Part shown: piece by piece, positions 2,228 to 61,435 of the stretch
How positions within the stretch are numbered: the stretch's first letter is position 1
How the letters are laid out: each line of letters opens with the position of its first letter
Source: Escherichia coli
GTDB taxonomy: Bacteria; Pseudomonadota; Gammaproteobacteria; Enterobacterales; Enterobacteriaceae
Assembly (NCBI RefSeq): GCF_013122565.1
Contig: NZ_CP053258.1
Strand: one strand, 5' to 3'
Length of the DNA: 64,000 nt
Program-made: the position numbers and the translations under genes
Notes under the pieces: model-generated
What the model was told of the DNA's origin: nothing
The model's input: the letters and a program-made list of their open reading frames with translations, nothing else
Databases searched by the model: none

Positions 2228-5594
<3,367 letters not shown>

Positions 5595-59011: not shown

Positions 59012-59380
59012 GTCGACAGGGAGTCAGACAACGAAGTGAACATCAGGATGATGACACTTCTGAAGGACACACCAGGATGGTGTTTCAGGGAAAGGCTTCT
59101 GGATGAAGCGAAGAGGATGACGCAGGACGCGTTAAAGGACACCTCCAGGATGGAGAATGAGAACCGGTCAGGATGATCCGGTGGGTCAGGAAGGCCAGGG
59201 ACACTTCAGGATGAAGTATCACATCGGGGTGGTGTGAGCAGGAAGCAATAGTTCAGGATGAACGATTGGCCGCAAGGCCAGAGGAAAAGTTGTCAAGGAT
59301 GAGCAGGGAGCAACAAAAGTAGCTGGAATGCTGCGAAACGAACCGGGAGCACTGTGAATACAGTGCTCCCTTTTTTTATT
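59012..59380 (+). ncRNA. csrB: CsrB small RNA (CsrA-sequestering)
   Basis: About 369 nt with roughly 20 GGA motifs (CAGGATG, AGGACA and similar) and a 3' terminator GGGAGCACTGTGAATACAGTGCTCCC plus T-run; between syd and yqcC as in K-12; the 5' end is approximate within about 10 nt. Confidence 0.88.
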
Positions 59381-60551: not shown

Positions 60552-61001
60552 ATGGCGGAAATTGGTATTTTTGTCGGCACCATGTACGGAAATTCGCTGT
60601 TAGTGGCGGAAGAAGCAGAAGCAATTCTGACCGCACAGGGCCACAAAGCAACGGTATTTGAAGATCCTGAATTAAGCGACTGGCTGCCCTATCAGGATAA
60701 GTATGTTCTGGTGGTTACGTCCACGACCGGGCAGGGCGACCTTCCTGATAGCATTGTGCCGCTCTTTCAGGGAATCAAAGATAGTCTGGGCTTCCAGCCG
60801 AATCTGCGTTATGGCGTGATTGCGCTCGGCGACAGCAGTTATGTAAATTTCTGCAATGGCGGCAAACAGTTCGATGCCTTGTTGCAGGAACAGAGCGCTC
60901 AGCGGGTTGGCGAAATGCTGTTGATTGACGCCAGTGAGAACCCGGAACCGGAAACGGAATCAAATCCGTGGGTCGAACAGTGGGGCACGCTGTTGTCCTG
61001 A
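60552..61001 (+). CDS. yqcA: Flavodoxin-like protein
   Basis: 149 aa; flavodoxin-like N-terminus [15 protein letters not shown]. Confidence 0.88.
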
Positions 61002-61435
61002 TATGTTCAGCGAGCGGTAAATGCCGTTTTAGCGGTGCTGAATCGAATCTTTTCAGGCAAATGCCAGTAAAAACTGCTTCATAGCGCGGATTTTTACTGG
61101 CGTTTGCCTGGAGTCAAGCGATCCATTTCATACTCTTCTTTATTTCTTCGTTTTAACCCTTCCTTTCTTGTTCTTGTTTTCATTTCCGTGAAGTGGATTC
61201 CACCGTCCAGGGCTAATGCCAAAATCGGGCCTCATTGAACGCATTAATGTTGTGTTGTTGCACGGTGAGCCGCTATGGCGCGCTTTTTATACTGCTATTG
61301 CCAGATATAAACACGCGCCGTATTCGGCGAACGACCTATAAAAACGGCAAAAAACACCCTACGTCACCTCTGATTTCCTGGCGATGTCGCAGTCCAGAGT
61401 GAGCGTGGCTAACGCGAATTTTCAGGAGTGCAACA

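Follow-up and report, generated by a model that had tools for sequence, protein, structure and literature searches.

The genes yqcC, truC, yqcA and gudP all lie on the + strand of the window (the whole 64,000-nucleotide stretch of Escherichia coli DNA that was analysed) and are co-directional, both in the open reading frame (ORF) list and in the RefSeq annotation of an identical sequence. The 434 bp spacer that separates yqcA from gudP contains a hairpin, unannotated in E. coli genomes, which starts 53 nt past the last base of the yqcA stop codon (61001) and lies within the yqcA 3' untranslated region, on the same strand as yqcA. Position w of the window corresponds to coordinate 2983536 - w of K-12 NC_000913.3; as this map fits both gene ends, there is no net indel in the spacer. 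A search of the literature on yqcA, gudP, gudT, the CdaR motif and CRP found nothing bearing on the yqcA-gudP spacer. The features referred to below are as follows.

59021-59380, + strand: csrB (Rfam match)
60552-61001, + strand: yqcA, flavodoxin CDS, the last of the yqcC-truC-yqcA run (ORF list, RefSeq)
61037-61050: conserved left flank GCTGAATCGAATCT (in other genera ACTGAATCGnGTTAGC), a Cra-like or 3'-UTR segment (alignment)
61054-61073, + strand: 5' arm of the long stem, CAGGCAAATGCCAGTAAAAA (sequence, fold)
61056-61065, + strand: near-palindromic box GGCAAATGCC in the 5' arm
61069-61073, + strand: A5 run in the 5' arm
61074-61090, + strand: apical region, in which CUGC (61074-61077) faces GCGG (61086-61089) across an 8-nt loop, A61090 being bulged (fold)
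61091-61110, + strand: 3' arm of the long stem, TTTTTACTGGCGTTTGCCTG (sequence, fold)
61091-61095, + strand: T5 in the 3' arm, forming an internal U-run
61102-61108, + strand: GTTTGCC in the 3' arm, in place of an ancestral GTTTTCA tail
61111-61190, + strand: pyrimidine-rich, G-poor tract directly 3' of the hairpin, a candidate rut (composition)
61117-61132: CRP-like site AGCGA-TCCATT-TCATA, 7 nt after the stem and outside the hairpin (alignment A1)
61418 (K-12 NC_000913.3 2922118, - strand), + strand in the window: Rho termination region of the 'orphan' class (Adams et al. 2021, Supplementary file 2)
from 61436, + strand: gudP

The long, near-perfect hairpin picked out in an earlier, sequence-only reading of this DNA is borne out by folding (z -8.9): the arms form 20 bp, of which 19 are Watson-Crick pairs and one is a U61062-G61102 wobble on the + strand, the equivalent of an A-C mismatch on the - strand. 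Of the two arms as first drawn, that at 61091-61110 stands, whereas that at 61055-61073 begins one base too late, its true start being 61054. The supposed 17-nt 'loop' (61074-61090) adds a further four pairs (CUGC/GCGG) and the base gains three weak ones, giving in the RNA fold a full helix of 27 bp (61051-61077/61086-61113) with one bulged A. The minimum free energy of the + strand RNA is -44.8 kcal/mol (z = -8.9, with none of 200 shuffles as good), that of the - strand RNA -35.9 kcal/mol (z = -5.3), and that of the DNA fold -23.2 (z = -6.3). Ranked against all inverted repeats with loops of up to 40 nt in the 64-kb window, the hairpin comes first, and it constitutes a GC-rich stem-loop on the coding strand shortly past a stop codon.

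It had also been claimed that no U-run follows the stem on either strand. This is literally true, as the sequence 3' of the 20 or 27 bp stem, GAGUCAAGC, contains no U-rich tract; the T5 and A5 runs sit inside the arms, where they directly flank the inner 4-bp hairpin. Immediately 3' of this inner stem the RNA reads A, UUUUU, ACU (61090-61098). Taken alone, the inner hairpin, with its four pairs including one U-G and its 8-nt loop, is worth -2.8 to -3.9 kcal/mol. Two small ORFs, at 61094-61222 on the - strand and at 61104-61238 on the + strand, cross the hairpin region, and the sequence beneath them varies between genera.

Distribution and conservation of the hairpin

Of the 5426 complete E. 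coli genomes, 5425 have the hairpin, always at one locus; the second 'place' returned by a sensitive search presumably reflects a match of the palindrome to itself on the other strand. Over 87 nt the sequence is identical in 4315 of these 5425 genomes, and most of the others differ by a single SNP. The five variant E. coli genomes that were fetched contained one change in the stem (C61064T, giving a U-G pair on the + strand), one in the loop, and others in the flanks. Membership of a repeat family (REP/BIME, ERIC and similar) was ruled out, the element being single-copy in 5425 genomes and without the REP consensus. A covariance model of the element (R1) found no further copy in the window or in the 80 yqcA loci described below, and a scan of Rfam 15 with E-values of up to 1 returned nothing over the spacer in E. 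coli and five other genera, CsrB being the only match nearby. The suggestion that the hairpin might be an unannotated, independent structured RNA is unsupported by Rfam, RIL-seq or CLASH.

Scanning one genome per species yielded 80 yqcA loci, in most of which gudP is the next gene, with spacers of about 280-530 bp. A recognisable homologue of the element is present in 29 of these loci, from 29 species: the carriers are Escherichia, the Citrobacter koseri/amalonaticus/sedlakii group, Salmonella, Silvania, Superficieibacter, Kosakonia, Phytobacter, Raoultella and some other lineages. The element is absent from the spacers of Enterobacter, the C. freundii group, Lelliottia and Buttiauxella, which often have a REP-like hairpin there; in Enterobacter and the C. 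freundii group this hairpin, GCCGGGTAAGGCG...CCCGGC, fills the equivalent spacer.

The alignment of the homologues (A1) has a fixed order, in which the left flank aCTGAATCGnGTTAGC is followed by a near-palindromic box GGCAnATGCC, nGTAAAA, a variable short GC hairpin, a T run, ACnGGC, rTTTTCA and finally the almost invariant block GTCAAGnGA-N5-TTTCACAyTC. Across genera, GGCAnATGCC and GTAAAA are both conserved. At the aligned position, four or more T in a row come directly after the small hairpin in 21 of the 29 species, C. koseri being one example (AAAACCCTTTC-ATAC-GAAAGGGTTTT, a small hairpin and T run), and rTTTTCA comes after CnGGC in most of the 29 homologues. The inner hairpins range from 0 to -9.3 kcal/mol, with up to 7 bp, and the core is bracketed by the A-run and by GCCnG/CnGGC, the latter with compensatory changes.

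When the E. coli structure is laid over A1, 68% of cells are paired, compared to 31-47% if the 3' partners are slid by one to three columns, and the covariation score is 0.177 compared to at most 0.119 for the slid controls. The pair 61066/61098 is seen as A-U, U-A, C-G and U-G; columns 45/77 of A1 contain C-G nine times, A-U seven, U-A three and U-G two, columns 34/88 contain A-U eight times, G-C eight and G-U six, and columns 47/75 also hold several pair types. The conserved part of the stem is TGCCnGTAAAA/TTTTACnGGCr, while the outer eight pairs are mostly unpaired outside Escherichia. A lack of conserved pairing, which the sequence-only reading named among the possible counter-evidence, is not what is observed: the pairing is both conserved and covarying. 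Because an anatomy of A-run, small GC hairpin and T run is shared across species, the core at this position appears to be a conserved intrinsic terminator, with a matching upstream A-run. The earlier setting aside of an intrinsic terminator is contradicted by the hairpin and T run of the related genera and by the T5 kept in E. coli.

It is only in Escherichia that 15-19 of the pairs in the 20-bp stem are Watson-Crick, compared to 3-14 in other genera, and the energy of the element is -24 to -37 kcal/mol in Escherichia (between -32 and -37 in five of six cases), compared to -7 to -27 kcal/mol elsewhere. Clustered substitutions in Escherichia have turned the left-hand CGGGC into CAGGC and the right-hand GTTTTCATAGG into GTTTGCCTGGA. 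To judge from the aligned homologues, these substitutions at the base of the element made the flanks complementary and turned an ancestral external UUUUCA tail into stem, and the GC hairpin of the ancestor, an intrinsic terminator, probably survives as the inner 4-bp stem. The lack of a U-run 3' of the stem would follow from both U-rich segments of the older terminator now being inside the helix. In the Escherichia lineages and the five E. coli variants, the cells that are not Watson-Crick pairs comprise 10 G-U (read on the + strand) against 2 A-C; over all 29 species the bias is slight (45 G-U against 33 A-C). This gives a weak hint that the + strand RNA may be the selected form.

Transcript ends, Rho and the proposed yqcA 3' boundary

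In the curated Term-seq tables (Adams et al. 2021) there is no 3' end at the hairpin, nor any from csrB to well past gudP, and the LB 0.4 list has none between K-12 coordinates 2914915 and 2924161; these tables are thresholded, and the low expression of yqcA (about 114 reads per 800 nt) may account for the absence. The TERMITe tables have nothing at the hairpin, and the SMRT-Cappable-seq files have no entry there. The Rho termination region at 61418 is 18 nt before the gudP ATG and 308 nt downstream of the hairpin, a location that is coarse, being based on 800-nt read windows. For this region, 2922118(-), the DirectRNA-seq reads upstream and downstream are 114 and 23 in untreated cells and 112 and 90 with bicyclomycin (Rho score 3.98, p 9e-8; Adams et al. 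2021). Inhibiting Rho raises the ratio of downstream to upstream reads from 0.20 to 0.80, which makes the yqcA-gudP barrier in K-12 largely Rho-dependent. The readthrough caused by bicyclomycin is found in the spacer, but the signal could instead represent Rho attenuation, in the leader, of transcripts begun at the gudP promoter, since the probable gudP leader holds a second C-rich stretch (61280-61360).

A C-rich, G-poor stretch of the sort expected of a rut site lies downstream of the hairpin at 61111-61190, with 25% C, 11% G, 50% T and 15-16 YC dimers (78-nt windows), although it overlaps conserved blocks that resemble protein sites, such that its composition may have another cause. Also measured in 78-nt windows, the ratio of C to G is 1.8-2.0 in this tract, compared to 0.6-0.9 in and just after yqcA, and C exceeds G in the tract of all homologues. 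In E. coli, Rho-terminated transcripts end just 3' of stable stem-loops that lack a U-rich tail; such stem-loops shield the RNA from PNPase and RNase II, and rut sites lie immediately downstream of them (Dar and Sorek 2018, PMC6061677). The tract at 61111-61190 is placed as those rut sites are.

The explanation that we favour, and to which we would give about an even chance, is that the yqcA (yqcC-truC-yqcA) transcript has this hairpin as its 3'-end stem-loop, a structure derived from an ancestral terminator that was remodelled in Escherichia and working together with Rho. The broader proposition that it is a yqcA 3'-end signal, whether assisted by Rho or intrinsic, is held with good confidence. 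In this view, the hairpin most likely terminates weakly and, in addition, shields the 3' end of a yqcA message whose termination depends on Rho. The starting point would have been an intrinsic terminator conserved across the Enterobacteriaceae, consisting of a small GC hairpin and T run with a second short UUUUCA tail after it; the Escherichia substitutions would then have created the near-perfect 20-bp outer stem, 27 bp in all, with the U-rich segments inside the helix. A polymerase at the U5 run would have only a weak hairpin behind it, resulting in little intrinsic termination, and the long stem would zip up next. Rho would load just past the stem, where the RNA is C-rich and G-poor, and terminate within the next 100-300 nt, ahead of gudP, after which 3'-to-5' exonucleases would trim back to the stem, which would cap and stabilise the yqcA message. 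The net effect would be to insulate the CdaR-controlled gudP promoter from upstream transcription.

This account takes the Rho-affected transcripts to come from yqcA and the tract to be a rut, and would place the mature 3' end at about 61110-61113. The stability of the hairpin before the U-tract exits falls short of what termination would need, the upstream RNA amounting to -2.8 to -3.9 kcal/mol, where what is 'enough' was judged from established knowledge. An RNA stability element is the best supported of the options put forward in the sequence-only reading, given the lack of a U tail, the C-rich and G-poor tract on its 3' side and the published Rho region in the spacer.

Alternative explanations

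The alternative that survives best, which we consider somewhat unlikely, is a canonical bidirectional-type intrinsic terminator of yqcA that is efficient unaided. Transcription would stop at the internal U5 run (61091-61097), the A5 run would aid invasion of the U-tract by the hairpin, the outer 15 bp would play no part in termination and be confined to rare readthrough RNA, and the spacer's Rho signal would stem from the gudP leader. The conservation of A-run, small hairpin and T run at this position in 21 of the 29 species agrees with this, as do the retention of A5, a 4-bp GC-rich stem and T5-A-C-T in E. coli and the position of the Rho coordinate, 308 nt downstream and next to the second C-rich stretch. 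The inner stem itself is a poor fit, with 4 bp including a U-G, an 8-nt loop, an unpaired A before the U-run and an energy of -2.8 kcal/mol, which falls below the usual range of terminator hairpins. It is not called by a simple terminator scan, no 3' end is listed at the U-run in the Term-seq tables (Adams et al. 2021), and the Escherichia substitutions that extend pairing beyond the U-run are left unexplained. However, inner hairpins of comparable weakness also occur in genera where no other hairpin bearing a T run follows yqcA, and Salmonella (-3.0 kcal/mol) and C. amalonaticus (-2.6 kcal/mol) have values as weak as that of E. coli; hence the weakness of the core is not in itself proof of poor termination. 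The Rho-assisted and intrinsic explanations differ solely in which factor does most of the work.

A binding site for a regulator of gudP had also been offered in the sequence-only reading, and here the evidence is divided: the arms resemble a box common to other promoters under CdaR control, but those of E. coli are the poorest matches to it. The corresponding hypothesis, which seems to us improbable, is that the arms are two inverted operator boxes for CdaR or another factor, their complementarity being a by-product, and that gudP is controlled from far upstream by a module made up of these boxes and the neighbouring Cra-like and CRP-like sites. The box was derived post hoc in this work from cdaR and garP/garD, no published CdaR motif having been found in the literature: the region upstream of cdaR and the garP-garD spacer share an exact 14-mer, GCATTTGCACAATG, which alone stands out, k-mers shared between the gud and gar spacers being at chance level. 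At the position of the left arm the box RGCATWTGCACA is matched by Salmonella (GGCATATGCACA) with no mismatches and by Raoultella with one; a box-like copy, GGCATTTTCAC, occupies the position of the right arm in many genera, and nearly all genera have another at about -235 relative to the gudP ATG. The 434-bp spacer holds two copies of the core GCWWATGC and the other 63.5 kb hold seven, and the stretch from the right arm to the CRP-like block is free of indels in 29 species. It is difficult to reconcile with this that the E. coli arms match the box worst, with 3-4 mismatches in 12 (GGCATTTGCCTG, GGCGTTTGCCTG), yet pair best with each other. A protein site would also leave unexplained the covarying position 61066/61098 and the A-run and T-run, and the sites are about 190-245 bp upstream of the probable gudP -10 element.

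The DNA sites that border the hairpin are conserved in their own right. The assignment of 61117-61132 to CRP is presumed solely on the match to the consensus TGTGA-N6-TCACA. This site sits in the deeply conserved block GTCAAGnGA-N5-TTTCACAyTC, in which TCACA has become TCATA in E. coli; as a CRP-like site the block reads aGnGA-N6-TCACA, and it is kept even in genera without the hairpin. A further block, TTTTCATTTCCGTGAA (61177-61193), is strictly conserved about 63 nt from the CRP-like block, the sequence between them being variable. On the other side, the left flank has one mismatch to the Cra consensus RSTGAAWCSNTHHW (PMC5829826); the window contains 19 matches of this quality where 12.9 would be expected, only a mild excess over chance. 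The CRP-like block, the TTTTCATTTCCGTGAA block at its fixed spacing and the Cra-like flank suggest that the region controlling gudP also takes in the left third of the spacer.

It is doubtful, though conceivable, that the yqcA terminator is embedded in a conserved, phase-locked gudP control module, with the same bases serving as RNA hairpin and as DNA operators. The order of such a module may be Cra-like site, operator-like site, terminator core, inverted operator-like site, CRP-like site and, about 63 nt on, TTTTCATTTCCGTGAA; if it exists, regulator binding and upstream transcription or termination could influence each other. In a speculative variant, the CRP-like site would act from -41.5 on a weak antisense promoter, TTGACT-16-AAAAAT (61117-61090), directed into the hairpin. 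A sigma-70 scan found one minus-strand candidate over the right arm, with a poor -10 that is not conserved.

We regard it as highly improbable that the perfection of the stem in Escherichia is functionless, the product of a quasi-palindrome 'corrected' by template switching during replication and neutral since. The clustered substitutions in both arms all raise complementarity, which is the expected signature of template-switch events, and the long stem is confined to one genus; against neutrality, the sequence is near-invariant across 5425 E. coli genomes, divergent Escherichia lineages retain the stem with changes that preserve wobble pairs, and the terminator-like core is conserved far more widely.

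Least credible of all is that the hairpin is the terminator end of a small regulatory RNA, whether from the yqcA 3' UTR or independently transcribed, with a 5' segment (CUGAAUCGnGUUAGC), a small stem-loop (GGGCAAAUGCC), an A-rich linker and a terminator hairpin with U tail: this layout resembles the known one of Hfq-type small RNAs, and the left flank is nearly invariant in about 17 species amid variable neighbouring sequence, but the flank has diverged in Escherichia (GAATC for GTTAGC), there is no Rfam match in E. coli or five other genera, RIL-seq-derived tables list the yqcA coding region alone, as a low-degree node, with no 3'-UTR or intergenic node, the Hfq-CLASH tables contain nothing, upstream there is no convincing conserved -10/-35, E. 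coli being the poorest case, and the pairing beyond the U-run is left unexplained.

Significance and comparison with known systems

The hairpin is genuine, conserved and not a product of chance, and known biology accounts for it. It belongs to a known kind of element, with a modest evolutionary twist, and raises no new question. If the 3'-end stem-loop explanation is correct, it would be a natural case of an intrinsic terminator remodelled within one genus into a Rho-associated protective stem-loop, with the ancestral and derived states both visible in living relatives, and so would inform the evolution of 3'-end signals. It would also mark the 3' boundary of the yqcA transcript and insulate a housekeeping operon from the inducible gudPXD operon. 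Terminator prediction would benefit as well, since programs that demand a U tail after the stem will miss such a hairpin.

Three known classes of element invite comparison. Like REP/BIME sequences, the hairpin is intergenic, imperfectly palindromic, stable and situated after a gene; unlike them, it is single-copy in every genome and does not have the REP consensus. Its locus shares with bidirectional-type intrinsic terminators an A-run, a GC hairpin and a T run after a gene on the same strand, and the homologues in Citrobacter, Raoultella and Superficieibacter look like canonical members of that class. By contrast, the E. coli GC hairpin has only 4 bp, pairing continues for 15 bp past the U-run, which is thereby internal, and the flanking genes are co-directional, with no convergent partner.

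The protective stem-loops described by Dar and Sorek 2018 (PMC6061677) are similar in that the hairpin is stable, lacks a U tail and has a C-rich, G-poor tract on its 3' side, and in that a bicyclomycin-sensitive boundary has been reported in its spacer. It differs from that class in being without a mapped steady-state 3' end, in its unusual length and perfection (27 bp), in its internal A5/U5 pair and in its descent from an intrinsic terminator.

Conserved blocks beside the hairpin

To the right of the hairpin lies a block of form GTCAAGnGA-N5-TTTCACAyTC, which is near-invariant across the 29 species with a recognisable homologue of the element, and is still present in genera lacking the hairpin (loci L032, L042, L051, L064, L075 and L076). 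On the basis of its consensus-like sequence, this block reads as a CRP-like site; the version in R. planticola is a perfect GTGA-N6-TCAC, while in all Escherichia TCACA is replaced by TCATA. A second block follows at a distance of approximately 63 nt in most of the 35 loci carrying both, and this spacing is kept despite an absence of conservation in the intervening sequence. The two blocks resemble paired protein sites, locked in phase, upstream of gudP. The left flank of the hairpin is also strongly conserved across genera and resembles a Cra site, a class of match only mildly more common than chance in the window (19 with one mismatch to the consensus vs 12.9 expected).

Putative protein sites in the window
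61037-61050: Cra-like site, GCTGAATCGAATCT (ACTGAATCGnGTTAGC in other genera), one mismatch to the Cra consensus
61117-61132: CRP-like site, aGnGA-N6-TCACA (TCATA in Escherichia), within the conserved block 61113-61135
61177-61193: TTTTCATTTCCGTGAA(G) block, spacing measured from TCAAG at 61114
61117-61090, minus strand: sigma-70-like promoter match, TTGACT-16-AAAAAT

The promoter match would give a minus strand start near 61083, antisense to the 3' end of yqcA, with the CRP-like site at about -41.5. Its -10 is poor and is not conserved.

Other hairpins and variation in the spacer

Different structures are found after yqcA elsewhere. In many genera a GC hairpin, mostly without a T-run, immediately follows the yqcA stop codon; this has been lost in Escherichia, which has only a mini hairpin, CGGTAAATGCCG, followed by TTTT at 61015-61030. 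In Enterobacter and the C. freundii group, REP-like hairpins occur instead of the element, in shorter spacers of 290-350 bp.

Alternative hairpins, in locus coordinates
~3451-3490: GCCCTCC-N5-GGAGGGC hairpin (L019, L022, L023, L024, L046, L050, L054, L057)
~3460-3520: REP-like GCCGGGTAAGGCG...GCCGCCACCCGGC hairpin (L010, L011, L016, L027, L030, L034-L041)

In Kosakonia, Phytobacter and UBA3516 (L054, L057, L058, L080 and L050), an A-run takes the place of the T-run on the right side of the element's central hairpin and the left A-run is retained (for example, GGGATAAAAAGTGC), and hence this hairpin has a U tail on the minus strand only.

Variation is also observed between E. coli strains. The sequence of 2014C-4135 (L088; NZ_CP027310.1 2414888-2415007) diverges totally from the equivalent of 61119 onward, and this abrupt change right after 61118, within the CRP-like site, therefore indicates an insertion or rearrangement breakpoint. 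The match of EC6563 to the spacer query stops after the initial 169 nt. PGAP calls of a 'hypothetical protein' span the spacer in a few RefSeq genomes (hits H9, H33 and H34); the sequence under its small ORFs (61094-61222, minus strand; 61104-61238, plus strand) is unconserved between genera.

The probable gudP leader and a candidate CdaR box

A Rho termination region (Adams et al. 2021) maps to 61418 (K-12 2922118, minus strand), 18 nt 5' of the gudP ATG. The probable gudP leader contains another C-rich stretch, at 61280-61360, the second in the spacer; it reaches a C/G of 1.85 and could be a separate Rho-dependent attenuator.

Sequences resembling GCATTTGCACAATG occur at 61211-61220 and in both hairpin arms, and box-like copies lie at about -235 relative to gudP in most genera. 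No published description of this type of box as an operator of CdaR, the glucarate regulator, was found in the literature. The box is a candidate CdaR operator; the exact 14-mer is common to the cdaR and garP/garD regulatory regions, and the gar region has a second copy, AGCATATGCACA.

Exact copies of GCATTTGCACAATG
L083 1401-1414: upstream of cdaR
L082 5033-5046, minus strand: garP-garD spacer
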